Below, one piece after another: positions 4,327 to 64,000 of a DNA stretch of 64,000 nt. Positions within the stretch are counted from its first letter, which is position 1; each line of letters begins with the position of its first letter. The position numbers and the translations under genes are program-made. Location: positions 26,474,001 through 26,538,000 of the forward strand of contig OZ004614.1 in assembly GCA_963924565.1 (NCBI GenBank). Reading direction: 5' to 3'. The notes under the pieces were generated by a model. It was not told where the DNA came from. It worked only from the letters and a program-made list of their open reading frames with translations, and did no database searches. The DNA is from Ascidiella aspersa (lineage: Eukaryota).

Positions 4327-7300
4327 GTGATGACGTGGTATACGATGGAGCAGAACTGGAAGTTTGGTCGCTCGAGAAAGTTGAAGATGCAGATCTTGAG
4401 GATGCGGAGTCTGGACTTGCGCTTGGATGGGACGGTGAAGTAGATGGGCTTCCCGTGCAAAGACATCTTACGCTTCCTGTACGGGACAGGGGGTGTGTCG
4501 GAGGTGTGGCCCCAGGGGGTGGGCACTCGGAGAAGCTGCAACAATAAGTCGTAAGCTGCAGACACAAGAAATTTCAGGGAAATATTTAATAAAGAGCGAA
4601 AGATTTTTAAGTCGTGAAATTATCTGTTGGTAACTTAATCACTCCTACCATCATTGAATTACAAACTGTTTTATAATAAAGCAAGGTTGTGCGAAAGTTT
4701 GCGAATTTATACAAATTGTTGTTAATAGTATCACAATATAAGTTGTTTTTTCAAGTAGTAATAAAACGTGTGTAGCATTTGTTTCTACTGTTTGTTAAAT
4801 GTTGAAATTAAACTTAAAAATTGCTTATTGTGTGAAATCCAACTTACGGTTGCGGCGAGAGAAGGTCTCCTACCGCTTCGGATATTGTGCTTTCCTCTCG
4901 ACGAATCATCGTTTGACACGTCATCAGTATGAGGATGGTCGGAAGTGAGATACTGGAAGTGAACAGGGCTCGAAATTACGGAGGCTTATTGCAGGAGTCG
5001 AAATTACAAGGCGGACATATTACAGGGATCGAAATTACAAGGCGGATCTGTTGCAGGGGTTAAAATTACGAGGCGGATTTATTGCAGGGTTTGAAATTAC
5101 AAGGCGGATTTATTGCAGGGCTCGAAATTACAAGGCGGACATATTACAGGGGTCGAAATTACAAGGCGGACATGTTACAGGGTTTGAAATTAAAAGGCGG
5201 ATTTATTGCAGGGCTCGAAATTACAAGGCGGACATATTACAGGGCTCGAAATTACAAGGCGGATTTATTGCAGGGCTCAAAATTACAAGGCGGACATGTT
5301 ACAGGGCTCGAAATTACAAGGCGGAGCTGTTGCAGGGGTCGAAATTACAAGGCGGATCTGTTGCAGGGGTCAAAATTACGAGGCGGATTTATTGCAGGGC
5401 TCGAAATTACAAAGCGGATTTATTGCAGGGTTCGAAATTACAAGGCGGATTTATTGTAGGGCTCGAAATTACAAGGCGGATTTATTGCAAGGCTCGAAAT
5501 TACGAGGCGGATTTATTGCAGGGTTTGAAATTACAAGGCGGATTTATTGCAGGGCTCGAAATTACAAGGCAGGCATGTTACAGGGGTCGAAATTACAAGG
5601 CGGATCTGTTACAGTGGCGAAATTACAAGGTGGGCATATTACAGGGTTCGAAATTACAAGGCGGATTTATTGCAGGGCTCAAAATTACAAGGCGGACATG
5701 TTACAGGGGTTGAAATAACAAGGCGGATCTGTTACAGGGGTCGAAATTTTATTGCAGGGGCTCGAAATTACGAGGCGGATTTATTGCAGGGTTCGAAATT
5801 ACAAGGCGGATTTATTGCAGGGCTCGAAATTACGAGGCGGATTTATTGCAGGGTTCGAAATTACAAGGCGGATCTGTTACAGGGGTCGAAATTACGAGGC
5901 GGATTTATTGCAGGGCTCGAAATTACAAGGCGGATCTGTTGCAAGGGTCGAAATTACAAGGCGGATTTATTGCAGGGCTCGAAATTACAAGGCGGATTTA
6001 TTGCAGGGCTCGAAATTACAAGGCGGATTTATTGTAGGGCTCGAAATTACAAGGCGGAAATATTACAAGGGTCGAAAATACAAGGCAGATCTGTTGCAGG
6101 GGTCGAAATTACAAGGTGGGCATATTACAAGGGTCGAAATTACAAGGCAGATCTGTTCCTGGGGTCGAAATTACAAGGCGGATGTATTGCAGTGCTCTAA
6201 ATTACAAGGTGGGCATATTACAGGGTTTGAAATTACAAGGCGGATCTGTTGCAGGGGTTGAAATTACTTTACATAACCCCTTTGACAAGTAAATGAAAAG
6301 TTGTTTCAAAAAATGTTTTGCAATTTACTAAACCTGACGTAATTGCAAGTTGTCGTTGCTGAAGTAAAGCAACATTTTGGGCTACATATGGTGGTTAATA
6401 AAAGCAAAACTTAACTTAAATTTCGCATATTTTCATTTAAACTATTTTGTTGAACTGACAAAACGATGCTATGTGATCATTTTAAAATATTGCATATCGG
6501 AACAAACAAAGAATCGTGCATTCCAGGTGAGAACAATTTAACATAAGAACCTTCTTGTTTGGGTTGAGATTAAGAATGTTGTGAAATAAATTTATATTTA
6601 AATTGCTGCTTACTTTAAATGTCAAGAAGCGCCTAAAATATTCATGCGGCGGCAAAATGGCCTTTAAACTTCTAAAATCGATGTTGGGCGAAAATGACAC
6701 GAGAGTGAATTGTCTCCAACGTCTGCCAGATGCTAAGCTTTTAAAGGCTAAGGTGCGAAGATGTACCCAAATGAAATGCAATCGCCCGAAACCCTTATTG
6801 TTAATATTTTGCGAACATGAAAAAAGGGGAATTTGAGTTCAACTTTATATGCGCTTTGTTTCATTGTTACACATTACACAAAAATACAAAAAAGAAAAAA
6901 GTAACTTGTCCTTTCCTATGTGAGCCGCTTTATTGAAAAGCTAGTGATTCGCACATTTTCACTTGCCACCGCTTATTTTCACACCGTTGTACAAACTGCG
7001 TTAAAAGCACTTAACGTTGAAAGGTTCTTGATGAGCCTGAAGCAATGCGAGGATAAGTGGCAGGATTGTAAATCACAAGAGTTTCTGGTTATAAAGACAA
7101 ACAACAACAACAGCCGACCACAGCCGGGGAATATGGCTAACTTGCAAATCTCCCGTAAGCCCACCTTAAGCCTACCAAACATAAATAACTATAGGTAACA
7201 AGTTAAAGACCTTAACTGTAAACTAAAGCTTTTAGATCTATAATATTGTTTGCTGCAAGGATTTGTAGCTAAGATGAAAAACTAGTATAACCCTCTAAAG

Positions 7301-42100: not shown

Positions 42101-45100
42101 GCGCTGGCGAACGCGGTGCTAGAACTGCTAGCCAAGAAGCTCAGGTCACAAGCCGATGAGGTGAGCTGCTTTGCACGAATTATTGACTCTCTAATTTAGT
42201 ATTTCGAACAATTAATTTAAATTGGTGGCTGAATACGACTCGTCTGACAATAGATTCTCTGGAACTCCTTTTTGGTGTAATTTGTTGCCTGGCCTGTAAT
42301 GGTTAGCCATAGTACTTAAAATAAGAAGTTGGATTAGCGCAAAAAAAAAAGAAAAGCTATAGAATCTCGTTAGCTTTTACAAGTCTTATGCTGCTTTGTT
42401 GCCGTTCCTTTTTATCTAAAGATATTTTCTAAAGGAGTTGAACCACTCTTATTTTTGCTTGTTATGTCCCTAATACCCCTACTTTACTTCTAATATCGCC
42501 TACTTTACATTAGGCATACAAAGACCCCCTAATGCCCCCATTTACCCATGGGCTTGCGACGAGTGAGACCTATAAAACCCCACGCTCAACCCTTACCTCA
42601 CACTTTACCCCAGGCTTGCGAGGAATGCAAGGCGATCAGCCGCAAGTTGTTTGAGAAGCCGAACACGATAGAGGAGCTGACTGAGATGCGCGATTGGATG
42701 AAGGGAGTCCCTGAGCAGCTGATGCAGCATCAGGAGATCATCGACCGAGCTATGGTTGATTACGAGCTCATCGAGGAGTTCTACTACAACCTCGCTCAAG
42801 ATGACTTCAACGCAAAGTAAGATTACTCCAAGCTTAGGAGAATAAGTCTTTTGCTGCTAGTAGCTACGAGAAAATATTGCAGCACCTTAAAGGCAAACTA
42901 TTGAAGCCGCCTCAACACTTTTAGAACAGCATATTGTATTTTGCCAAAACTTTTAGCCTTAAGATTGTCGCAAAAGATTTTTTAAGGACAGTCCTATATT
43001 TGCATAGGGAAACAATTTTCTTATTTGCGTAAACAATCTAAAATGTACTAAATAATTACGACTTCCCTTAATCGCATAATGCTTCAACTTATTCGTTAGA
43101 TGGTGAATTTATTTTGATTTCAATCAAAGCAACGACCTTAACTGCAACACATTAAGGTTAGGGTTATATTGTTCACCAAGGCTTGATGTGCATGATCTGT
43201 ACATTAAGTCGAGAGTTGTGTGTGTTCAGTCTTTCAAGCCGACTCAATGAATATCGAGCGTGGATGCATTGCGTCACAAACACATCGTTTATAACGTCAC
43301 AATGCAACGCGCTGTAACGCGCTATCGATCAATTATGCATGTAGCCGCGTCGGTTTGCGGAACACAGGCGTTCATTACGTAACAGTATACCTTCGCACTG
43401 TGATATGACAATCGGGTTGCGCGATTGTTTTTTCATATGCAGCATTATGACGTGACAATCAGTGGCTTGTTTGGGAATTCCCCAATATACCTGCTAAAGT
43501 GGATTTTTGCAGCAAAATGTTCGTTGCATTATGTGACTAAACTTTATGCTTATACACGATGTATAACCTAATCCAATGAGATAATAAGTCGGCAAACCAC
43601 TGAAATCGCAGCATTATTACGTTTTGTTTATAATGGTGTGACCAAATGAAAACATTACTTCACAGTTTGTGACAATAATGTCAATGAACCATCAACTTGA
43701 TGTTTTGTTTGATGCAATATCTTTGTATGCTGGGCAATTGTTGCGTAACTTGGATTGCTTTCAACAAAGTTAGGTGCAAATAAACGAGTCACATATTTTG
43801 GCAAAAGTCAACAAGCAACATCGCGCTGAACATCCAGAAGTTTTGCATAATTTTGTCGCAAATCCTTCAACTCAAGTTGACGAGGATGGCGACCAGTAGC
43901 CCGAGGTGGCTTGCAACAATGAAGATGACGTACAATCGGAAGAACATGACGTCAACAGCTCGCGCGACGCTCTTCCACTCTTCTTGCTCCAGATCCTGCC
44001 TCTCCTGCTCCTCCTCCTTCGCTATTCGCTCCAATTCACGTTTCCGTCGTTTACGCAACTTGCGCTTCTCCTTTCGTTCCGTTTCCGACTTTTAGAGTTC
44101 AACAAAATGTGCGTTAAAAATAAAACGGGAATAACTGAGAAACAGAGATTGGAAAACATTTATTACCTCGCCATTGCTGAACATTCTTTTGTAATGTTTT
44201 ATACATTTTTCAAAATATTAGTTTAGTAAAAACAGATATAACGCTAAAAAGAATAATGTGTTTTCACTACAATTATATAGACAAAACTCTACTTTGCTTA
44301 AAAGGCAATGTTTTTGTACAAGATTTCAACCTAAAAGAAAATTAAAAATCATGGTAATTGTTGACAGAGAATAACATTTGATTTTAAGAATAATTAAACT
44401 TGCTAAATGTAACATCCGTCAGTTTGTTTTCTGTTTGAACATTAAAACAAAGTTTTCAATTTTATTCTTTTAGAAAAGCAAATAAATTTAAAGTCAAACA
44501 AAACGAGAAACACCTCAATACAAACTTACCTTTGCCAGAAATCCTTTAACGTCAGCTAATGCCGAAAACATCTTCGACTTTGGAACGCTCCACTTGTTCT
44601 GCAGGAGATTCCCCGCAGTTGGGGTTTTGTCCGCGCGCAAATCTTCCGCGGACGACTTCCGACTTTTACCCCCTTCCTTGTTGTTCGACGGAGACTGGTT
44701 TAACGTCAATTCCATCGGACTAGATAATCTGCAACCAAAAAGGCTAAACTCAGAAAAAATACACATTTGCAGGAAAGTGTTTGTGCAGAAGAAATTCTTC
44801 GTGGCATTTTTCAACTAACATTTTATTAAGAACTTTATAAACGAGGAACTTACTGCTTTCCGTGTTTCTTCGGTGCTTCCGTAATGTACTCCACGTCCAC
44901 AACTTTCGGCTGGATTCCGTAATTTACCGTCTTTGGAACTTCCTTCTGTACTAATCCTTCCACTCTAGAATCCGACCAATTTGACTCGTTATCCGAATAA
45001 GTGACGTCATCTGCCTCACTAATGTCACCGTCATCTGGTTTGACGTCATCGTAGTGTGCGTCATTAACGATTGGTGCCATCCACCGTGAATCTCGCTCCC

Positions 45101-48100
45101 CTAAAGTCCAGTACTTGTCGAAAAACTGTAGGATTCTTCGATATTTGGTGGGAATTGAGGAATCGTTCCGCGAACTTTTCCGCGACCGCTGCGTTCCGTG
45201 TTTGTCCTCATCGCTCGAAATTTCTCCCTCCAAGCAACGAACTCTGCAACTGTAAGAACATTTGTTAACATTTCATAACGTTGTGTGGAATAATGACCTG
45301 GAAAAACCGTTAACAACACAAACTAGACGAAGATAGGTAATATGTTGAGTGTGTTCAGCAGATTGTTGTTCATTACTGGGGGTATGTTGTTTTGAAGCGA
45401 TCCAGTAGAAATGCCCCTGGTCGTAATAAATGCATTGAAATATCTTAAACGGACCCACTACCAGTTTAATTAAATGCTTGCTTCAACATCTCACCGTCCT
45501 TGTTTCTTCTTCCCGCCTTCCCTCCGTCTTTTACCGGCCACCTGGAAGTCGTTCACGATCGGCTTGAAATGCACGTGAAGCACCATCACGGTCATCATGA
45601 GGTTTACCCCGAGAAGTCCCATGCATATCACGAAGTAAACTCCTAAGTATGGACCGGTGGATGCCGGGAACATCTCACCAACAGCGAGAAGGAATACCTG
45701 CAATATTAAAAGGAATTTACTACGTGAGCGTATCGTGACTTACCATGAACGTGAGCATTATCGTGATGTATCTTGATTTACCATGAATGTGAGCATTATC
45801 GTGATTTACAGTATCGTGATTTACCATGAACGTGAGCATTATCGTGATTTACCATGAACGTGAGCATTATCGTGATGTATCTTGATTTACCATGAATGTG
45901 AGCATTATCGTGATTTACAGTATCGTGATTTACCATGAAGATGAGCAGTATCGTGATTTACCATGAAGATAAGCAGTATCGATATTTACCATGATCGTGA
46001 GGAGTATCGCGATTTACCATAAACTTGAGCAGTATCGTGATTTACCATGAACGTGAGTATCTTGATTTACCATGAACGTTAGCAGTATCGTGATACACCA
46101 TGAACGTGAGCAGTATCGTGATTTGCAGTATCGTGATTTACCATGAACGTGAGCAGTATAGTGATTTACCATGTACATGAGCAGTATCGTGATTTACCAT
46201 AAACGTGAGCAGTATCGTGATTTACCATAAACGTGAGCAGTATCGTGATTTACCATAAACGTGAGTAGTATCGTGATACACCATGAACGTGAGCAGTATC
46301 GTGATTTACCATGAAGATGAGCAGTATCGTGATTTACCATAAACGTGAGCAGTATAGTGATTTACCATAAACGTGAGCAGTATCGTGATTTACCATGAAC
46401 GTGAGTAGTATCGTGATACACCATGAACGTGAGCAGTATCGTGATTTACCATGAAGATGAGCAGTATCGTGATTTACCAAGAACGTAAAAGGTATCGTGA
46501 TTTACCATGAACGTGAGCAGTATCGTGATTTACCACGAACTTGAGCAGTATCGTGATTTACCATGAAGGTAAGCAGTATCGTGATTTACCATGAACGTAA
46601 AAGGTATCGTGATTTACCATGAACGTGAGCAGGATCGTGATTTACCATGAACTTGAGCAGTATCGTGATTTACCATGAGGATGAGCAGCATCGTGATTTA
46701 CCATGAACGTGAGCAGTATCGTGATTTACCATGAACGTGAGCAGTATCGTGATTTACCATGAAGGTGAGCAGTATCGTGATTTACCATGAACTTGAGCAG
46801 TATCGTGATTTACCATGAACGCAAAAGGTATCGTGATTTACCATGAACGTGAGCAGTATCGTGATTTACCATGAATGTGAGCAGTATCGTGATTTACCAT
46901 GAACGTGAGCAGTATCGTGATTTACCATGAAGGTGAGCAGTATCGTTATTTACCATGAACGTGAGCAGTATCGTGATTTACCATGAACGTGAGAAGTATC
47001 GTGATTTACCATGAACTTGAGCAGTATCGTGATTTACCATGAACGTGAGCAGTATCGTGATTTGCAGCCCGATCCTCTCCCCAGAGTCTGGAGGTAGGTA
47101 GAATCCCAGCAGAGCTACAGTTGTTAGGATGACGCTTGGGAAAAGCATGCTTTGCATATAGAGTGAAGAGTTTCTACGAAGCACAACTGTGAACGCAACC
47201 TAAAAACAGAGCAGATATTTTATGAAGGCCTGAGAAACGATTAATGTTTATTGGGTTCCCTAGAGTACTGGTGAGAAGAATCTGTTTATTTTAAGTAACC
47301 AACCCTCGAACCACGAATATTAACAATTTGCCAAGCACTCTTAAACCAAACCATTTCCGCTATATGATGGGTTGTACCAGCTTTGTTATTGCACTCACCT
47401 CTGCAAACATACTGTCGGTGATAGTGAAGTTGTTGTTAGCTTTTGTGTCGAGTTGCTGAGTGGCGGTGACCACCAGTGGACCGTGGTGTTCAAAGTGCAC
47501 TTCATCGTCCCCCGTCCCACTAACAACAACAAGGTAACATTAATTGTTGATATTGGTGACAGTGATAAGTGTTTATTCCAAAGAAGTTGTGCGCTTTGTT
47601 ATAAAGGTTGTGTCCTGGCATTATTTACATGTGCGTACAGCTCTATGCATTGTCTCCAATGTACTCATGCTTGTCGAACTGCCCACGATATTTAAACTCG
47701 CATTAACGTTTATTTAGCTCCATTATATGCACTAATACCACACGTCTGCGTCCCCAATGTTCTCGGTTCGCATAACGTGTCCTCACCTCCCTTCATCAGT
47801 GTCGTTGTGCGAGCTTGCGTTGTGTAAGCTTGCGTTGCTCGATGCTTTCGTGCTCAGGATCAACGACCCGTAGTCGCGCACCTGAAACACAAACCATCTA
47901 AACCTAGCAGTGAAATGTTAGACAGCTGGCTGTGAATCAAGCGGTCAAACAAGGGGTCTATTTAAAGAACTACGATAACTGACACAATAAGCAACAAATT
48001 ATATGCGGAATAAGCAGCTTTCTGCAAACTTTCCACAATGCATTTAGGAAGTCACTTCTAACTTTCTGTTATTGAAAAAAGTGATTTGTTCGACTCACGT

Positions 48101-51100
48101 TCTTCTTGACGCTGATCCCCGCCAACCTCCACTCGCCGGTGTTGATGAAGAATCGATCTGTGTCTTCCTCCAACTTCAAACTGCTTCGGTCGCTTGAAAG
48201 ATCGATCCGGGAGATCGGCTGCGACCATGACACGAAAGTCATGTGACACACCTGCCAACAATACACTCTGTTACGTCACTACATGGAAGTCATATGACAC
48301 ATCTGCCAACAATAGACTCTGTTACGTCACTACACGAAAGTCATGTGACACACCTGCCAACAATACACTCTGTTACGTCACTACATGGAAGTCATATGAC
48401 ACACCTGCCAACAATACACTCTGTTACGTCACTACACGAAAGTCATGTGACACACCTGCCAACAATACACTCTGTTACGTCACTACACGAAAGTCATGTG
48501 ACACACCTGCCAACAATACACTCTGTTACGTCACTACACGAAAGTCATGTAACACACCTGCCAACAACACACTCTGTTACGTCACTACATGGAAGTCATA
48601 TGACACACCTGCCAACAATACACTTTGTTACGTCACTACACGAAAGTCATGTGACACACCTGCCAACAATACACTCTGTTACGTCACTATTCCGCGTGTT
48701 TTAAAATATTGGTTAATTGAGTTGTATGGTTGAATTAAGAATAACAACTTGTTGATTAAAGGGATGAAGTTTGTACTCTTGTGTCAATATCGTGTTGCGA
48801 CTTTCCTAGTTTAAATTCTTGGCAGATGGAGTTTAGTTTTGTTTGAACTTTTATGTTTTCGGAAACTAAATGAGCTGTGACTTGTTAAATACTGGAAAGA
48901 AACGTCCAACGCTGATTGGTGTTCTACAGCTACTTCAGTATCGTACTCTAGGGTTACCAAGAGTTGTTCGTTGCACCTGAACATCGAAGGGGAAGAAAGC
49001 TGTGTCGATGCTGCAAGAAGTCTCGAAAGCGCTCGGCTCCTGGTACTTCACTGTTCCGTCATAAACGACCTGTACGTGGACGAGTCGTGGGGGGTAGCTC
49101 CTGCTGCCAACCTCCTCGTAAACAACAATGTCCGGGAACCAGATCAACTGGTGCGGGATCTCAACTGAACAAGTGGGACAGGGATGGTAGTAACACTATA
49201 CTGGAAGCCGTGCTATCATTAGTGTTCGACTTACTTCGCCCTGGAGCCCGTGTAGCTCAGCTGGTAGATCGACAGTCCCGGTATGGTCAAGGTTGTGAGT
49301 TCGAATCCCACCACAAGCTCGTGTATTTTGCTGGACTAATTTCGGGTAAACAGCCAAAGGGACTCGGTGTATTTCATACCCACGTTTGTGGTTATGATCG
49401 TTCCGTATGATTTAAAACTTTCAGATCGCATTTTATTCATGTCTAGCGATTTCAAAACAGCAGCTTTAGAAATCCAGTGGCATGAAGTAAGCAAAAATAT
49501 TAAACGAACATAAGCTATTTCAACCAATAGTTTCCCTTACTTTCTTTGATGCCACCAAATTCCTCAGGATTCCAAACAAACTGATAATCCTTCCAAACAA
49601 CTCGATACCAAACCAAACTCTTCAAAACCTGGTTCTTTTCGTCCAAATCTAACACCTGAAGAAGAAAATCAATCATTAATTCGATGTGATGTTAACATTC
49701 ATCGATTACATGAGCGTTTCTTAAACTGTCAGTTTTGTTCACCCCTGGCATCAAATGCTGCGTTTCAATTCACCCAAATAAATAAAACCGTCGCAACTGT
49801 CCATAAGCGTCATTGGCATGAGCACCAGTATGTGCGAGGTATTTGTGGGTTGCTTGTTGTACCACATTTCTTCTGGTATTAAACAATTTTGATGTTGGTT
49901 TGATTTGTGCAAGTTTCTGAGCACAGAAATATAAAAAAAAATCATTCACCTGTTACACAATTGATTGGTTAATCCTTGTAAAATTACCCACCCTTGGTCG
50001 AACCATTCTGTAGTTTAATAAACACTGGGTTGCATCTCACATGCGATGCATTGGCCTGGTTATCAAATGATGCATATTTACGGGCGTAATGTAAACGTTG
50101 AAGCAAATTTGAGGTTTACACAAAACACTGCAGCCACCTGTTGAGGTTAGAGATGTGGAAGCAGATAAGGAAGCTACTTACGGGATTTCTCTTAGCGGCC
50201 AATCACGCTTCTTTATTTTCTTTCACATAACGTGATCTCGCATGAATAATGGAAAGCTCAAAGATTGTCCGGAACCTTAGGAAGGTGGTTTATTTTGCGA
50301 CAAACACGAAATATATTACTCATATATTTAAACGTATAGTTCGACTAAACCCACTAAAGTAACACGATCCTTAGAAGCCAATAATACTTCCATCTGTCAG
50401 TTAATTTAAACCACTTAAAATGTTCTATATTTATGTGAAGCCTGCAAGTGATATCTTGCTGGAACCTTCAACACACCTTTGGTTTTAACCCGAACTTAAC
50501 ACTTGCGGTGAAATAACGCCTTAAACCACTTTGTTGTTTCAGTAACCTTAGTACAAAGTGTGACCTGATGTAAACCTTATCTCTAGCTGTTATTTTTACC
50601 TCGAATTAAACAAAGGCCGCACTTTGAACAACCCGAGCATTTTGTGATCTATCACTGTCGCTGTTGTGTTAGTTTGTGCTGATTTTATGTCAGCTCATTA
50701 AACTTTTACTAAATGCGCAACGCAGGAAGTAAGAGCGCAACCATTAAACGCAAATACTAAAAGCACCTGGGCTCTACATTTCGTTACAACCACTTAACAA
50801 CTTTACATTTTGCCATAATTTAAAAATTTCAACATAAACGATTTAACTTCGTTTAACTTCATTGAACACTTTTATAGAAAAAAAGTATATAAAAAATACA
50901 GTCCGTTTTAGGTGCTGCCACCTAGTGAAGAACTTACCTGTCTATAGGTGAATCCGACTTTAATGAGGATGTTTTCTTTATAGTCGTAGACAGGGGGCAT
51001 TGTTGCGTCATAGCCGTCCAACAATGCGCGCTTGAGTCGTTGCACGGGCGAGTCTGATTCACTCCCATTGTTGTATTGCTTGTTCTGACTGCGACTCAAA

Positions 51101-54100
51101 CTCGAAGTGTCTGGGAAGTAGAAGGTGATTATTGAGAGTCGGTTAAAGTGAGCCGAGCGTTCCGGGTAATAATGTGATTTCCCACCAAGCCATCAACTTG
51201 GATATATTTAGGCTAATACTTCATTTGCATATCTGTGCACGTCATCGAAACGTTTCCTGAGGTCTTTCAAGCGTCCCGTTATGACGTAACTTTGACGCCA
51301 TCTTAAAAAGTTCAAGCGTCCCGGTAAAAAAAAATAATTTCCTGCTTATTATAAGATTAAAGTAGAAGTAAAGATTGGGGTCGCAATTTCAATTCGGTTC
51401 ATGATTACTTTTGATTGGCGAGATCCAACTGAACATACAGAACCCCGGGAATGGCACTTCAACAAAAACACGTTTTCGTGATAATTGCATTAACGTCTAA
51501 CAGTGTTATTTGGAATGGTTATTGAAAACATATTGCGTGGGTTCATCCGCGTTCGTGAGTTCGAATCCCGCCAACACCACCAGTGCAAAGTATCTGTTGT
51601 GTTGTAGTGCATTGTGTTGCAGTGGAGTTTATGGCTTTCCAGTGAATGCGCCGACCTTATGCCAGTGAACCTGAAACTTCGAGGAATTTACGGCATATAC
51701 ACCTGAGGAAATCCCACCACAATAGTGTAAACGCAACAAGGTCGACCTTGCAATTCCATAAAAACGTAATTTCCTGCATTGGGTCGACGCTTGTATGTTT
51801 GCTGTAAATATTACAAACACTTTCCCACCCATGGGACCAATTAGAATCCCATAATCTATTTCTATTACGTTCTAAGTCAAGTTGCTCTTTCAACCTAATT
51901 TAGTGTTGCTACTTGGAAGTTGCGATAACGATGGATGGAAGCAACTTGACCGCAATGTTCCTTGGTATTAAGTGGCCGCTAAGTAAGAACTAAATTTAGT
52001 GGAAAGAATCCAAACAGGAAAAACGAAAATATTGAGTAAGACACGCCCAGCAGTTGGAAATTGTTGTATGATCTCACCTTTAACTGCGTTGAAGCTTGCG
52101 CCATTGACTTGCGTTGTTTTGACGAGGCTTCCTTTTGAGGCGGCGTTCCCGGCGAACGAATGCCCACATTGCCGCAGAATTAACAACACAACCACGATAA
52201 GTGGAGCTAGCCGCATCTTACTGGACGCAAAGTACTTGAATGTCATACAAGCGAGGTCTGAAGGTTATGCGAGGATAAACCACATTGGCTGGCTCAGTCA
52301 CATTTTTTTCTTGCCTTTGATATTCAAGAAAACCTCGGCCTTATCTGCCTCTAAACTTACATTACATCGAATATAATTTTGGAGGCTTCTCTTTTGAAAC
52401 AAACTAAATCTTTATTTGCTTTTCTGTCGGTAATTTTAAAATGTTTTTCCCATTTGATCTACATTGTGGGGAGAAAAAAAGAGTGTTTCCGTTAATTATT
52501 TTGTAAAACAGTCAAATAGTATTTGCGCGTTATTCTTGATTGTGAGTTAAAACGAGAAAACAGCTATCGAAGCGCAACGCCTGATTTTTCACTAAAGTAG
52601 TTGCTGACATCCGCTAAAAAAGAACACTTATTAAATAGTTAGGCTTTTATCTTGCTTATTTGGATATGATATGCACATACACGCCAGAAGCACTGTTGCT
52701 AAGTTGCAATTATAATGTATTCGTGTTCGTGACGCCCGTTTAGTGGAACGGAAGTGGTGGATCAATCGCTGCCTTCACATCTATTCGCCGTCTTACTTGG
52801 TGCTTGTCACATCGGGCAAATAGAGGAATGTCTCCAGCGTGGATTGCCAAATGTATGTTACACTACGGTTAACCCAAATACAGTAGGAATAATATGAAAG
52901 GCCATATAGATTCTATAGAACTATTGGTAACTTTTTTTACTACTGTGTTTGCTTTGATATTCTTACTACGTCCAACGAAAAATTCAGTCATTATGCTCCA
53001 AAGATAACTAATTACTTCATTAAACTAGGTGCAGTAAAACCAACTAAGCTTTCTTTGATAAATGTTTGTTAAAATACACTTGTGTAAGAATTGAATCCAC
53101 AAACTACAACCATCGTTCAACCATACCTAACGTTATGCCCCTATGTATACTTGGTATAGCACGTTACTGCTCAATAAGCTCGTTATACTGGGTTCTGCCA
53201 ACATGAACATGCACCAGCAGCTCCCAAGATACCTCTGCTACTTACAAACGCGCACGATTCAACCTTCAAGCAAATGTTACTTTCCCGCAGCCTGAGTGTA
53301 GCGATCCCCACTAAGTTACATCTGCTTCGAACAAAGTTAAAACGTGTTGCAAGTGGCACGAACTGTCCGCCCTGTTAAGGCGCACCGGGGTTCTCGGGAA
53401 AATCGTTACTTTCAAGTCACGTTTTACATAAATTCGCTGCAAATGTGCTAAGATGCCTTGCAACAACCGAACACCAAATCAACATCACTTTGCTTTGTTG
53501 GCGTTTCCCACAAAGCGTTACTTCCCCTCGTCTACCAGTCTGTCATCTCAACGCACCATTAATACTTCACGCGACCCACGAATATATGCGACCCGTGGAA
53601 ATATGCGAGCCGTGAAAATATGCGAGTCAAGTTTGTTTTTGCAGCGAGTGAAAGTTACAACTTTCTGTTTTATTTGTTCACTGACGGACTTTACTTTGCT
53701 GTGATATCTACGGTGAGCAAGCTGAGCATTCGTTGTTTGGTGGAAAACCTTAAAGATCTATTTGTATAAGGCCTTGACCTCATTAATATTGCAACACAAG
53801 GATCACACAACCGCGCATTTTCACGTTTATAGCGCACTTAAGCATCTGAGTGTGATGCTGAAACCTCATTTGTGCGTTGAACCTGACTCACACATAAAAT
53901 TAAAAATATAAAGCACGTAAATCAACATTGAAAGCAAAACAACTTGAGCTCCAATATTCCAAATATGGTAAGTTTTAAATCTCCCGTTTAACCACAGTTG
54001 TGATATAGTTTAACCACAGTTGTGATATAGTTCTAACAATAAGCTTAATGCCTTTGATGCTTATCCGCTTGTGCTCGCTGCACAACTTCCCACACAAGGA

Positions 54101-57100
54101 TTGTTGTTCCTTTTCAAAAACCTCGACCGCTGTCCATCTGTTACGTCACTGACGTGCTTTTCCTCCCGTCTATTGTGACGTCCTCAATAAAGCGCTGGTC
54201 ACCTTCGACTTATTAAGGTGCTATAAATATGTTCGGCTATATTTAACACTGACCTGTTTGGTCTCGTCTAAATAGGTTTGTAAACAACCAATTGTCCACC
54301 TTTCAATTTACAATTGTTCGCTCTTTGTGACGTAGAAATGGCGCAATTTCAAAAGTAAACAAATTCGTTTCGTTTGGAATAGGGTAAACGCGCATAATAT
54401 TTAACGCAAATATTCTTTTTAGTAAATATAAATATACTTTTAAAGTTTCCGCATTTTTTCGCGCTATTAACTAACTACATTGTGACGCAACAACGTATAG
54501 AGCGCGAAACATCTGCTACAAGTTTTTCTAAGCGGCGTATTATTCCTAACTTCGCTGTATCATTAGGACGTGCGTACAAAGGGATAATTAGATAACTAAA
54601 TAGATTGTAACTTAATGTTGTTGCATTCAACTTTCAGCAGAAATGCCTCCCTACCCGCAAATGTATTGTTTAAACGAAACTGTTTCCTCTTTCAACCAAC
54701 GAACCCCGTTCATAATTAACCTTCTCGACCAACCAAACCGATTTTTCTTCACAGGTGGTCGGCGATCGGTTGGCCGAAGAAGTTGGAAGATCAGATGGAA
54801 GCTACTTACAGCACTTTGAACGAACTTGAGGAACATTTCCACAAACTACAGCTGGGAGACCAGAACAACTTCCAGGACAGATTGGACACTCTGCAGGTGG
54901 CACATGCGCCCAGCTACCAAACCTACACTACCCCCCTAACCAACCAATACTAACCCAGCTATCCAAATAGGCATAGGCAGAGTTAAACATTAGCGATATA
55001 CATTTGCTACTGATTACCAATTTATCGACTGATATGTTTGGTTGAGTTGTGTACTTTTACGTATTATATTTAGATGTTTGGTTGTGTAGAGCGTGTTTAT
55101 TGTGTTTAGATGCTTGTTGCTGGGTTCGCCGCCCACAACGAGATCAGCAAAGCTCACGAGGTTGCCAACGAAGTTCGTCGCATCAACAAACAACTCAAGG
55201 AATGCCAGGGACTTGCTCAGGTTTACAACCAGAGAGAGAGGTTATTCGGGATGCCGGTCACCAACGTAAGCTAACAACTATTTGTATTCCGCAGAATGCA
55301 ACACGTTTATGCATTGGGCGTTTTTTTTAATGTTTTCAGATAAACTTTTGTGTTATCGGTGTTATTTTACAAAGTACGTTTGACGCGCGTTGTTTTTCGA
55401 CTTTCAAGCTTCAATATTCCTGTTTTGTTATTTCCTCGGCTTTCGATTACACGAGCTATTGCGTGTGCATCCATCCATGACCGTTCCAATGCCGCAAAAA
55501 TTTGACAAAAACCTCGCAGTGTGACGTCATAGAGACAATCGCGCGTCGGCCGAAACTGCTTCGGTGAGCTTGAAACAACGAAGTTCAGCGTGGCATTAGT
55601 TGTTGCCTCGTAATGTAACTTGGTATTATAGTTGCCTTTTAGAATGTTATTTGATGTTCTAACATCGAGGTTACTTTTGATACGCCGTATGTTCTTTATA
55701 CCATAAGGTTGGTTTAACAAACGCAAAGCATAACTTGGACATTCCCTCACAAGTGTAAAGCATTGGGGAACAAAATGCACTTATGTGAGGCTCAGTGGCG
55801 CCATGTAGCGGCAGTCGTATAAATATTTTCCCACCGCGAGGTTTTTGTTGAGTCTTTTTCGAAATTCCTGATCCTTTCACGAGGCTTGTCGTTCTCGGGT
55901 TGGGGTTTTACCCATCGCTGCTTTGTTCACTCGTGCGTGAAGAAGGGTGACGTCACGTTATCCTAATGATGACGTAACTTGCCTCTTCTTGACGTTATGC
56001 TGTGTTACGACGTATGATGTTCACAGACGCAGATTGCAAATTTCACTTTTTCACGTCAACTAGTTGATAGTGACGCTGTCATCCCCATTTGTTCATTGTT
56101 CATGTTGCCAGGATTAATGATCGTGGTTATTCTCGAAAAACTATTATTCTCACCCCTTTACTTGAGATCGGTTTGTGACAGAAACCAATTTGTTCAGTCT
56201 GTCTCTAGCTCTCACAACTTTAACCCTTCGTTAAACTTGTGGCGTGTAGTTAAACATAGAAATGCATTCATTATCAACGTTTAACATTGTTTTGTTTTTT
56301 CTACATTCGTCATTTCACTCATAATCTTTTAGTTTCGTAGTTTCTGTAGTTTATTTCATTACGTCATCATCTCGTAACTACGTCATCGTTCTTTTTTACA
56401 CAAATCATCATCTACCCTGACTTCATCCATGTGACGTCATCCATCTTGACTTCATCCATGTGACGTCATCCATCCTGACTTCATCCATGTGACGTCATCC
56501 ATCCTGACTTCATCCATGTGACGTCATGCAATCGCGGTTGTGACGTGATACGTGGTGACAACAGTACGATAAGCTGAGCAAGTTGGTGAAAGACTTCCAA
56601 CCTTACCGTGACCTTTGGACGACAACTTCTGATTGGATGAGGTGGCACGAGTCATGGATGAATGACCCGCTGACGTCAATCGACGCCGAACAAATGGAGC
56701 GGAGCGTGAACGACAGCTTCAGAGTTCTTCACAAATGCGCCAAGCAGTTCAAGGAGATTCCTGGTAAGATTGAAATTATATTTAATTATTGCGAATATAT
56801 AAAAATTATCTTTTATATTTGTTTTACATGGAAAATAATGATGGTTTAATATTGTTAGACGTGTCATGAAGGTTTAATATTGTTAGGCGTGAACTACGTG
56901 TACTTAGAATTTTAGATTAAGAAGTGTCGGCTTTTTACTGTTAATGTGCAGTAGTTTTAGAGCTGCTTGTGTGTTAGGCGTGCAGCAAGTTGCCCTGCAA
57001 GTGAAGGGAGACGTGGATGGGTTCAAACCGTTCATCCCACTCATACAAGGATTGCGCAACCCTGGCATGAGGATAAGGCATTGGGACGCTCTCTCCAAGG

Positions 57101-60100
57101 AACTTGGGTTCTCCGTTCAACCAAAGGTATAAACATACCGTGTATAACTTGGCTGATAAATCAATTGTTAGGATCAAATGCTTTTCTAATTTTTTTCATC
57201 GATTAAATATCTCAAGTTTTATGTTGTTTCCAGCTTACAGATTATAATCAATACAGGTCCATGATACGATGCTGCATGACCAGGTTTATTGTTGCCTCTA
57301 AAATTATTATAACTATTTTTAAAACAAGTGTATTTTTTCTTTTTTCGTTTGACCAAACGTGACAAAACATTTTTAATTGTTTTTTTGGTACATTAAAACT
57401 AAATTAAAGCTAACAGCAATAATTTAATTGATGCAATTCTTTATGTTACTCTAAAACATTTTCCGTCTTTTATGTAAGTGATAAATCTCTATTTAGCAAG
57501 TTGTAATCTCCCTGTTGATAGTTGTTACTGAGTGAGTGCTGTGTTGTGTAGGCGGCCTTGACCTTCAGCAAGTGCCTTGAGATGAACTTGGCTGATCACA
57601 TCGACAAGATCGCCAAAGTTGCCGAAGTTGCTGGGAAGGAATTCAGTATCGAGCAAGCTCTTGACAAGATGGAGAAGGAATGGGAACCGATCAATTTCGA
57701 GGTAAACCTTCAACATCTTCTACTGATAAATCCTATATTACCTTTGAGGTAAATCAAGTGTTTAAGATGCATTTTTGTATTTATTTGTTTATTTCAGCTT
57801 TTCCCCATAAAATAAGGTTTACTGGGATCCCCACAACTATCATTTCTAGAATTGGCACATTCCTTCAATAACCTTGTACCAATTTTCAAGGTGAAATCTT
57901 ACAAAGAAACCGGAACTTTCATCATAAAATCACCGGAAGAAGCGTCACAGTTGCTTGATGACCACATTGTGATGACACAAACGATGTCCTTCTCCCCTTA
58001 CAAGAAACCTTTCGAGGAGAGGATTGCTACTTGGGAGAGCAAGCTGAGCATGACGCAGGTAAAAAGCATGAGTCAGCAATCACGGTTTACCAATTTTTTT
58101 GACGTCAATCTTTTGATTTAACTTGGCGATGTAATAACCTCTTGTGACACTCACAAGTCGGCGTACGAAAACATCCTCTTGTTAGGCGTAAATAAATTTG
58201 TCACGTACGTGCGGTATAAATAGACTTATTTAAGTAGTATAATCTAATATAATTATATATATGTTATGATTCAAAACAATTAGTTATGTGCATAGCTTAC
58301 TATTTTCTGTTGAACAGGACGTGTTGTTGTTTATAGGACGTGTTGTTATTGTATAGGACGTGTTGGACGAGTGGTTGGTTTGCCAGCGATCGTGGCTCTA
58401 CCTCGAACCCATATTCAGCTCGGAAGACATCAACCGTCAACTCCCGGTTGAAGGGAAGCGATACCAGACCATGGAGAGGATGTGGAGGAAGCTCATGAAG
58501 AACGCAAACGACAACACACAGGTGATCACGCGCTCATCACGCAGGTGATCACGCGCTCATCACGCAGGTGATCACGCGCTCATCACACAGAGATCACGCG
58601 CTCATCACGCAGGTGATCATGCGCTTATCACGCAGGTGATCATGCGCTCATCACGCAGGTGATCACGCGCTCATCACGCAGGTGATCACGCGCTCATCAC
58701 GCAGGTGATCACGCGCTCATCACGCAGGTGATCACGCGCTCATCACGCAGGTGATCACGCGCTCATCACGCAGGTGATCACGCGCTCATCACGCAGGTGA
58801 TCATGCGCTTATCACGCAGGTGATCAAGCGCTTATCACGCAGGTGATCACGCGCTCATCACGCAGGTGATCACGCGCTCATCACACAGGTGATCACGCGC
58901 TCATCACGCAGGTGATCACGCGCTCATCATGCAGGTGATCACGCGCTCATCACGCAGGTGATCACGCTCTCATCACGCAGGTGATCACGCGCTCATCACG
59001 CAGGTGATCACGCGCTCATCACGCAGGTGATCACGCGCTTATCACGCAGGTGATCATGCGCTCATCACGCAGGTGATCACGCGCTCATCACGCAGGTGAT
59101 CGCGCGCTCATCACACAGGTGATCACGCGCTCATCACACAGGTGATCACGCGCTCATCACACAGGTGATCACGCGCTCATCACACAGGTGATCACGCGCT
59201 TATCACGCAGGTGATCACGCGTTAGATAAACCTTAGCAATTTGTGTAGCATGTCTTGAGCACTATTGTATTATTATTGTCTCCCATGTGATGTAAATTTT
59301 GCCTACTTTTGTAACTTTTACAAGTGTTATCAACAATATCTGCGTATTTCGCTCTGTTTATGTGAAGTTTCCCAGTTTTAAGTAATCTTTTCTAAGGTGA
59401 TTTCGCTGTGTTCGGACGCTCGGCTCCTTGAGAGCTTGAAGGAGTGCAACAAATTGTTGGAGCAAGTTCAGAAAGGACTGAGCGAGTATTTGGAGACGAA
59501 GCGAGCCTCATTCCCCAGGTGAGCCATCCGCTGGTTTGATCCGTCTTCCTCATTTTACTTTGTTCATCCTTAACTTCCACCTTCCAGGTTTTACTTTCTT
59601 TCCGATGATGAGCTTCTTGAGATTCTGTCGCAGACCAAAGACCCGACCGCCGTCCAACCTCATCTCAGGAAGTGCTTCGAGAATATATTCAAGGTAATTT
59701 AACACAAGTTTGACGCCATGTTAGAAGGGCTGTGAAACGTTTAAAACTAATATTCAGTTGGCTTTGTTGGCTTTAAATTGATGTTTTGAAGTTGTTTTAT
59801 AACGTCTTTTTTATTCAAAGTTGATCTCAATGTGAAATAGTACAAATAGTGGGTTGCCAATCACTTCTAAGACGAACTGTATTTGACTCCTCAACACTTC
59901 TGAGTTTAATTTACTCCACATCTATCAACTCGCACATTTTGTTGTCAGATCAAGTTTGAGTCTGACATGAAGATGACGGAGATGATCTCGGGTGAGGGCG
60001 AGCATGTTGCCTTCAGCGAGGATCTTTATCCCACAGGGAACGTGGAGGACTGGCTTGGTGAGGTGGAGAGAGTGATGATGCAGAGTGTGAGGATGCAATG

Positions 60101-63100: not shown

Positions 63101-63638
63101 TACCTCGCAATAAAAATACTGTTCAATAAAAGCACTTTTCAATTAAAATACTTTTATATCAAGGTTTCACTTTAAGATTATCGCTTGGCTCGAAATAAGT
63201 TTTGCCAATTATTTTTTAAAGGATAAATAGCTAACGTAAATTTATTTCAAATTATTCTATTTAATTATAAAAAGGTAGTTTATTGAAATATATATTGCCG
63301 TCATGCAGAGATCACAATAAAAAACAGTACTTTAGTGGGATTCGAACTTACGACCATACGAACACGCGACCACTGTCTCACTAACTGTGCTATCAAGTCA
63401 AAACTTGAAATTCCTGGGCACTTCAGCCACACATGCAAGTTCACAACTTGTTGTTCAGGTGGATGGTTTTGTGACCAAGTGTATCCAGTTGTACGAGACG
63501 ACTATTGTGAGGCACGGACTCATGTTGGTCGGACCAACTTGCTCGGGAAAGACAAAGTGCTACAACGTCCTCGCCAAAGGACTCACGCAACTCAAAGGAC
63601 AACCTTCCATCAGCGGCGGAAACTATGAGGCTGTTCAT
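33180..63638 (+). CDS. DNAH1: Dynein axonemal heavy chain 1 (inner-arm type), N-terminus through AAA1 into AAA2; gene continues beyond window end
   Basis: 36 coding exons: 33180-33317, 33910-34005, 34573-34645, 35039-35219, 35680-35969, 36361-36522, 36854-36989, 37387-37509, 37903-38060, 38405-38508, 38970-39080, 39584-39751, 39956-40127, 40599-40803, 41415-41513, 41935-42160, 42614-42816, 54755-54896, 55110-55265, 56565-56763, 56978-57126, 57552-57701, 57891-58058, 58357-58521, 59397-59518, 59588-59693, 59949-60162, 60516-60700, 60758-60840, 60979-61092, 61167-61404, 61641-61811, 62144-62233, 62495-62606, 62878-63092, 63459-63638. DNAH1-type N-terminal motifs [41 protein letters not shown]; linker [26 protein letters not shown]; AAA1 [34 protein letters not shown]; AAA2 GPTCSGKT. 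The first three exons rest on splice phase only. Confidence 0.95.
33333..33599. mobile_element. MITE in the first coding intron of DNAH1
   Basis: TIR core TGGAAAGTATGGCA / TGCCATACTTTCCA; repeated GGGTGCAC; 8-bp TSD TTTGGTGG at 33325-33332 and 33600-33607. Confidence 0.8.
43867..52246 (-). CDS. 5-HT3-receptor-like / nicotinic-type Cys-loop cation channel subunit (non-alpha), complete, 12 exons, ~731 aa, nested antisense in a DNAH1 intron
   Basis: Exons 52246-52078, 51110-50938, 49655-49541, 49164-48977, 48251-48099, 47881-47787, 47519-47399, 47199-47038, 45697-45495, 45249-44854, 44728-44530, 44088-43867 (2196 nt, phases consistent). Signal peptide; LDEKNQVL; WYRVVWKD; [10 protein letters not shown]; Cys loop [15 protein letters not shown]; TFVSW; GEW; M1-M2 [27 protein letters not shown]; M3 [14 protein letters not shown]; M4 [17 protein letters not shown]. 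No vicinal cysteines in loop C. Confidence 0.92.
45722..47063 (-). repeat. 28-bp minisatellite (~48 copies) made of an exon 3' end plus the 5' splice site
   Basis: - strand unit ATCACGATACTGCTCACGTTCATG|GTAA = codons ITILLTFM of the M2 helix plus the donor. The first copy lies in exon 47199-47038. Confidence 0.97.
48230..48689 (-). repeat. 51-bp minisatellite (9 copies) made of a 3' splice site plus the exon 5' end
   Basis: - strand unit AGTGACGTAACAGAGTGTATTGTTGGCAG|GTGTGTCACATGACTTTCGTGT. The last copy supplies the real acceptor and the start of exon 48251-48099 (VCHMTFV). Confidence 0.97.
49246..49345 (+). mobile_element. tRNA-derived SINE copy
   Basis: TAGCTCAGCTGGTAGATCGACAGTCCCGG...GTGAGTTCGAATCCC, colinear with the 22721 copy. 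Confidence 0.7.
56417..56527. repeat. 29-bp tandem repeat (~4 copies) just upstream of a DNAH1 acceptor
   Basis: Unit CTGACTTCATCCATGTGACGTCATCCATC, ending ~37 nt before the exon at 56565. Confidence 0.9.
58519..59221 (+). repeat. 23-bp minisatellite (~30 copies) starting exactly at a DNAH1 donor
   Basis: Unit CAG|GTGATCACGCGCTCATCACG. The first CAG is the last codon of exon 58357-58521. Confidence 0.97.
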
Positions 63639-64000
63639 GTGAGTTTGTAAAGTTGTTCATGTGAGTTGGTAAAGTTGTTCATGTGAGTTTGTAAAGTTGT
63701 TCATGTGAGTTTGTTAAGTTATTCATATGAGTTTGTAAAGTTGTTCATGTGAGTTTATGAAGTTGTTCATGTGAGTTTGTAAAGTTGTTCATGTGAGTTG
63801 GTAAAGTTGTTCATGTGAGTTGGTAAAGTTGTTTATGTGAGTTGGTAAAGTAGTTCATGTGAGTTTATCATTTGTTTATGTGAGTTTGTAAAGTTGTTCA
63901 TGTGAGTTGGTAAAGTTGTTCATGTGAGTTGGTAAAGTTGTTCATGTGAGTTTGTAAAGTTGTTTATGTGAGTTTGTAAAGTTGTTCATGTGAGTTGGTA
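63632..64000 (+). repeat. 22-bp minisatellite (at least 16 copies, truncated by window end) made of an exon end plus donor
   Basis: Unit TGTTCAT|GTGAGTTTGTAAAGT. The first copy overlaps the end of exon 63459-63638. Confidence 0.97.

Follow-up and report, generated by a model that had tools for sequence, protein, structure and literature searches.

A minisatellite across an intron–exon junction of a tunicate Cys-loop receptor gene: nine tandem acceptors and the probable choice of the last

Introduction

Which acceptor is taken when nine near-identical acceptors stand in tandem at the end of one intron, and how does the gene tolerate the other eight? A nicotinic-receptor-like gene of the tunicate Ascidiella aspersa raises this question. 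A preliminary description of the locus had proposed that splicing to an upstream copy rebuilds a donor, and that ratchet-like re-splicing from such donors may be why the array is tolerated. We describe the anatomy of the array, the history of the junction that it repeats, the strength of its splice sites, related arrays elsewhere in the genome, and the RNA evidence. Our reading is that the minisatellite arose by tandem duplication across an old junction, and that the spliceosome takes the last acceptor directly, the only copy on a whole exon; we give this reading a probability of roughly three in four. Judged from the sequence, the array is ordinary in kind, and the strong donor that its decoys could rebuild is the unusual twist.

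The array and its host gene

The window, the whole stretch of 64,000 nucleotides that was analysed (C8:26474001-26538000), belongs to a genome of 308.6 Mb; C8, with 26,590,166 bases, ends about 52 kb further on. On the minus strand of the window, at 43867..52216 (ends approximate), is a nicotinic-receptor-like Cys-loop gene with Pfam Neur_chan_LBD and Neur_chan_memb matches. It lies antisense within a 12-kb intron of DNAH1 (42817-54754; the modelled flanking exons end at 42816 and start at 54755); the best named matches of a dynein exon include Ciona DNAH1, at 98% identity. Neur_chan_LBD is matched by both receptor exons that flank the array, one over profile positions 103-138 with E 1.3e-7, the other over 140-190 with E 0.0039, which misses the curated cut-off.

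The upstream exon (48977..49164, minus strand; start at 49164 inferred from the reading frame) ends in F-P-F-D-V-Q and has a weak donor. The host intron of 725 nt (48252..48976, minus) comprises 287 nt of unique sequence and then the array (48230..48689, minus), nine units of 51 nt that each join 29 nt of intron end to 22 nt of exon start. TRF reports 48230-48689 with period 51, 9.0 copies, 93% matches, and no indels. The 29-nt intron portion of every unit holds a branch-point-like motif, a U/G-rich tract, and CAG, so that, as first described, each unit carries a 3' splice region together with the start of an exon. The productive exon (153 nt; 48099..48251, minus) starts inside the last unit, where it encodes the second Cys of the Cys loop, and is followed by the donor GTGAGT at 48098.

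The nine acceptors are in register, with first exon bases at 48659, 48608, 48557, 48506, 48455, 48404, 48353, 48302, and 48251 (minus), and only 48251 opens the 153-nt exon; the claim of nine tandem acceptors with the last alone productive is borne out. With a slash marking the splice junction, eight of the nine units read CAG/GTGTGT and the one at 48302 reads CAG/ATGTGT, in agreement with the preliminary description, as is the CAG that ends the upstream exon at 48977. The intronic portion of the array (48252..48689, minus) thus presents eight decoy acceptors, seven AG/GT and one AG/AT, each followed by seven codons and then TAG TGA; all eight need to be skipped, as had been stated. The predicted stop inside the array was correct and the predicted V/H variant was not: the decoy peptides are VCHMTFV (four), VCHMTSM (two), VCYMTFV (one), and MCHMTSM (one), each then meeting the stop. 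Across all 51 nt, four decoys match the productive unit exactly. A second unit type with three shared changes occupies array positions 2, 6, and 8, and this interleaving with the first type would fit unequal exchange.

An assembly artefact was considered as the source of the array and rejected. The contigs of two short-read runs, X1 and X2, which may be from the source sample of the assembly, break at the array, and the array is real because the depth of the unit contig is far above that of the flanks (332.7 vs 60-61 in X1; 711 vs 98-119 in X2). Reads of a further run, X7, with many differences from the window, cover the array too, at a depth of 6.6-7.3 that is too thin for copy counting.

The receptor gene carries a second junction array (45729..47063, minus), whose 28-nt unit includes the donor of exon 47199-47038 and which fills nearly the whole intron; it holds 44 decoy donors, none with AG before the GT. 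A GTAAGT in its last copy, near 45742, stands about 46 nt from the acceptor and looks a better donor than the one that keeps the frame. Separately, a short high-copy interspersed element, likely a SINE, is present at window 49244-49315 and at L073:9417-9557, with a DNA-run depth many times that of the flanks.

An old junction under a young array

Five loci besides the focal gene match the upstream exon (L146-L150). In the closest paralogs, L146 and L147, F-P-F-D-x-Q is followed at the same position by an intron (1171 and 629 nt), with a single acceptor and no array over it; their exons start with GCT and ACT, and the productive exon is 44% (L146) and 38% (L147) identical to them. L149 has GT at the exon start too, and L148 and L150 read on. 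Because L146 and L147 share the intron position without the array, the intron predates the array, and birth of the intron from the duplication itself is rejected. From the paralog comparison, the junction GT is therefore part of a Val codon that precedes the conserved Cys.

Splice-site strength and the case for recursion

Sites were scored with our own exon and splice-site model, trained on the sampled DNA (197 introns, partly from this region) and ignoring dependence between positions. The seven AG/GT decoys score between the 77th and the 91st percentile as acceptors, against the 84th for the real acceptor, and the AT copy at 48302 reaches the 55th. The donor rebuilt at the decoys lies at the 79th-84th percentile of the 197 modelled donors, vs the 22nd for the real upstream donor; only 1 of the 197 modelled junctions rebuilds a donor as strong. 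Regeneration of a donor by decoy splicing, as proposed earlier, thus applies to seven of the eight decoys and fails at 48302.

These scores would make recursive splicing at the array possible: seven of the eight decoys juxtapose a strong acceptor with a rebuilt donor of usable strength. Such sites could permit stepwise removal of the intron, in which the donor at 48976 would join a decoy, the rebuilt CAG/GTGTGT donor would join a later acceptor, and the receptor mRNA would depend on this rescue. A 54-copy array in an SLC23 gene lends the idea some further weight, as its decoys are as strong as the real acceptor and could rebuild a donor of middle strength, at the 57th percentile (upstream exon uncertain). 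Several features of the locus argue the other way. The host intron has 725 nt, whereas classic recursive sites are reported to be conserved and to lie in very long introns (PMC6110457), with shorter hosts also on record; at the equivalent position, L146 and L147 have neither array nor GT, a comparison that concerns paralogs rather than orthologs of other species. Single steps of 51 nt would fall short of the 60 nt of the smallest intron seen with RNA support, with modelled introns beginning at 49-57 nt. In addition, 48302, the decoy nearest the real site, is the weakest and alone lacks GT, and a ratchet would end there; its position suggests direct choice rather than a ratchet, with chance possible (1 in 8).

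Junction arrays in the sampled genome

Our survey covered 1.664 Mb including the window (1.6 Mb fetched additionally), mostly chromosome ends, and counted arrays with a period of 10-200 and at least 5 copies; since sampling was aimed at chromosome ends, the counts are no genome-wide rates. Of the 104 arrays found, 102 come from chromosome-end blocks, which total 1.454 Mb, and the inner blocks, totalling 0.21 Mb, contribute 2. Curation retained 28 arrays that span a junction (12 acceptor, 16 donor), with up to 273 copies. In all of them the intact, exon-attached copy is last for acceptors and first for donors, a universal layout because survival of the gene requires it.

The acceptor arrays speak directly to the proposal that donor regeneration explains tolerance. 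GT is present in four (the focal receptor with 9 copies, DNAH1 with 273, SLC23 with 54, and an unnamed gene with 5) and absent from eight (SLC23 with 7 copies, an unnamed gene with 12, M13 peptidase with 60, an amino-acid transporter with 6, a tyrosine kinase with 9, PAH with 32, and USP-like and dynein-like genes with 9 and 8). Eight of the twelve therefore cannot rebuild a GT donor, and the share with GT is that of background: 4/12 vs 56/197 ordinary exon starts (Fisher p=0.75), and inclusion of two ambiguous arrays gives 5/14 (p=0.55). Even where GT is present, the rebuilt donor may be poor, as in the 273-copy array of DNAH1, where it reaches just the 4th percentile. On the donor side, AG before the GT is missing in 9 of the 16 arrays.

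Decoy strength varies among acceptor arrays. Decoys fall below the real acceptor in DNAH1 (36th vs 69th percentile), M13 (9th vs 57th), and PAH (5th vs 21st), and score about equal to it in five other arrays. The biggest acceptor arrays (DNAH1, M13, PAH) tend to have the weaker decoys, with the 54-copy SLC23 array of the GT type as the exception; the cases are few.

Whether junctions attract arrays depends on the expectation chosen. An automatic test called 23 of 74 arrays junction-spanning against 7.3 expected, and inspection by eye upheld about 18 of the 23. The curated 28 of 104 compare with 11.2 expected if arrays arise evenly across all modelled introns (p=1.7e-5), and with 30.4 if they arise solely in introns up to 400 nt; because the excess changes with the null, we do not claim enrichment at junctions as established. 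Four candidates were dropped before the count: the GT-type array of an Ig-domain gene at C6e 50580, with a better acceptor 43 nt further on; the AT-type array at C9s 54031, with a low exon score; C9e 41493, where the exon is uncertain; and C6s 25519, with 1 decoy. Arrays that merely abut a junction were likewise excluded, and a donor array at a DUSP exon was counted from its own sequence. Pfam support is partial, with 23 of 35 scanned exons having any match at E 0.01.

DNAH1 itself, on the plus strand of the window, carries a short acceptor array with three AGs (58316..58365; AG/GA), the last productive, a donor array of 23 nt x 31 with 29 decoy donors (58515..59221), and a donor array of 22 nt x 55 (63632..64000) that continues past the window, with 51 decoy donors and a preceding AG in none. 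Adjoining the window on its right, at L005:1035-8512, is the DNAH1 intron occupied almost entirely by the acceptor array of 27 nt x 273 (7.5 kb); it has 262 decoys, starts 13 nt past the donor, and ends with the productive copy. At window 4964-6267, a 31-nt x 42 array lies beside a low-scoring exon call on the minus strand.

Other blocks show a similar texture. In L065, L067, L073, L115, L119, and L120, many arrays that span no junction begin or end about 3-11 nt from one, and several fill their intron. A dynein-like gene at the C7 end (L128-L131) has four donor arrays, one acceptor array, and an intronic array of 30 nt x 364 (10.9 kb), and a proprotein-convertase gene at the C4 end (L109-L110) has donor arrays of 113 and 35 copies. 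Density drops sharply 60 kb to the left of the window, where L139-L144 hold one array of at least 5 copies vs 11 in the window block. One gene of another kind was met in passing: an intronless myosin head at C6:6282635-6284827 with an open frame of 1045 aa, other myosins being intron-rich.

RNA evidence

Among the listed runs that contain the stretch, none is recorded as RNA. At the receptor gene, run X8 yields 20 reads, none with a joint; nearly all are plus-strand DNAH1 pre-mRNA, in numbers too sparse for the focal intron. The orientation of X8 reads was calibrated on a PAH-like gene (Pfam Biopterin_H), and this gene supplies the informative case. Its array of 27 nt x 32.5 contains 17 close decoys, none with GT. 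In eight RNA reads with 7 starts, the donor is spliced over 839 nt to the outermost acceptor, and the same joint occurs at depth 22.4 in a spliced contig of X3, a run that contains spliced contigs and shares 0.53 of the words of the window stretch. The modelled junction of this gene is thereby confirmed. No decoy joint appears among the joints listed, at a shallow coverage of 8 reads and with 42 further joints beyond those displayed, and read depth over the array is not above that of other introns. An array without GT is thus spliced to its outermost acceptor, so an array can be skipped without recursion. The PAH-like decoys are weaker than their real acceptor, unlike those of the focal array, and ordinary RNA-seq would undercount decoy use since decoy products would be degraded.

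The proposal that the array owes its tolerance to a ratchet finds no support in these observations: the GT-less array is spliced in RNA, the largest GT array rebuilds a very weak donor, and the focal decoy that adjoins the real site is the one lacking GT. With no GT enrichment among acceptor arrays, stepwise removal is left as an unlikely account of the focal intron.

Discussion

Direct choice of the last acceptor could come about in a simple manner. One tandem duplication across the old intron–exon junction would have founded the minisatellite, which may have grown by unequal exchange. Duplication would leave one copy on the whole exon and push the others into the intron; because one intact copy always stays on the exon side, the process would be nearly neutral. 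Choice of site may rest on definition across the exon with the downstream donor, and what probably favours the attached copy is that no other copy has the full exon sequence beside that donor. The decoys have 22 nt of exon, and their use would make stop-containing exons of 204-561 nt. Nonsense-mediated decay clears rare stop-containing splice errors, and rare decoy products may be removed in this way. Reed and Maniatis reportedly found in 1986 that a duplicated splice site bearing the full exon wins. The discussion of the human F7 case holds that early splice-site duplication experiments disagreed (PMC1557585). Re-splicing would probably be blocked by the exon junction complex, which is reported to suppress regenerated splice sites in flies and mammals (PMC8184009), a point that also weighs against stepwise removal.

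Some considerations count against direct choice. First-AG scanning would favour the first copy, and how the last copy would win is what we infer; moreover, seven decoys about equal the real acceptor, and the donor that they rebuild is unusually strong.

That parity also underlies a second account, in which decoys are used appreciably, their stop-containing products are degraded, and receptor output falls with copy number, making the array a splice-affecting VNTR. Each decoy does lead to an early stop, with later junctions far downstream of it, and the largest arrays often have weaker decoys (DNAH1, M13, PAH), as if strong ones were costly. Set against this are the PAH-like array, with neither a decoy joint among those listed nor raised read depth, the five other arrays that retain decoys about equal to the real site, and the amphioxus arrays discussed below, which are reported to yield no aberrant mRNA (PMC3087553, PMC3902484). 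We consider this account quite improbable. The same holds for a combined version, in which strong decoys are truly used and ratchet through the rebuilt donor, and large arrays survive only with weakened or re-spliceable decoys; if true, recursive splicing would have been born from a VNTR inside a short intron. Ratchet splicing at the focal intron, if real, would reveal one way in which recursive sites originate and would place recursion in short introns. Finally, steering by RNA structure, in which a 14-nt intron element at 48828-48815 would pair with acceptor copies like a docking site, is very improbable: the element is complementary at 13 of 14 positions to the 48302 copy and has a predicted pairing of 0.69 with the 48608 copy, but the pairing is not significant, an equal one arising in 21/200 shuffles for the real acceptor and 4/200 for the best copy (picked after the fact), four of 88 modelled introns pair more strongly, one element can mask one copy only, and predicted accessibility does not set the real site apart.

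The set of 28 arrays is more useful than the focal array. It forms a natural panel on choice among identical acceptors, with copy numbers from 5 to 273, GT present or absent, and decoys that are weak or equal. Junction arrays also mislead ab initio gene models, which is a warning to annotators.

Comparison with known systems

A tested case is known on the donor side. Intron 7 of human F7 holds a 37-bp VNTR with five to nine identical functional donors, of which only the exon-attached one is used (PMC1557585). Both loci repeat splice sites in tandem; in F7 the choice is explained by 5'-to-3' scanning from the donor side, a rule that is inapplicable as stated to the focal array, because its exon-attached copy, on the acceptor side, comes last.

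Recursive splice sites, or ratchet points, share with the focal decoys the juxtaposition of acceptor and donor at AG/GT, both scoring well (PMC6110457, PMC8184009, PMC10156609). Most sites reported in these sources stand singly in long introns and are conserved, unlike the focal ones, which are tandem, young, and 51 nt apart in a 725-nt intron, and whose GT belongs to a codon. Mouse pseudoautosomal genes resemble the Ascidiella genes in lying at a chromosome end with minisatellite-filled introns, for which high recombination is blamed; the portion of that account consulted does not describe repeated splice sites (bioRxiv 10.1101/2022.03.26.485930). Repeats at exon–intron boundaries are also reported in human duplicated genes (PMC2812944). 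Our literature search, with most subscription papers outside it, returned no tunicate report of mirages and no report of an acceptor VNTR.

The closest structural counterparts are the mirage minisatellites of amphioxus: minisatellite-like duplications of intron–exon boundaries, with units of 10-160 bp and one acceptor-side case, found among others in the globins BflGb6 and BflGb9 and in Adh3, where regular splicing is reported to be undisturbed (PMC3087553); troponin C and PGBD5 add to the list (PMC3902484). By its structure, the focal array belongs to this class. All nine units span the boundary, as in BflGb6, which repeats the 3' end of an intron with the start of an exon; unit size and identity (51 nt at 93% matches) are within the described range; the intron pre-existed, as the single acceptors of L146 and L147 attest; and, as in amphioxus, many units keep splice signals. 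The Ascidiella arrays differ in their tunicate genome, in sizes of up to 273 copies, and in their clustering near chromosome ends. Mirage minisatellites are thereby extended to a tunicate, where they are common near chromosome ends, with 28 curated in 1.66 Mb.
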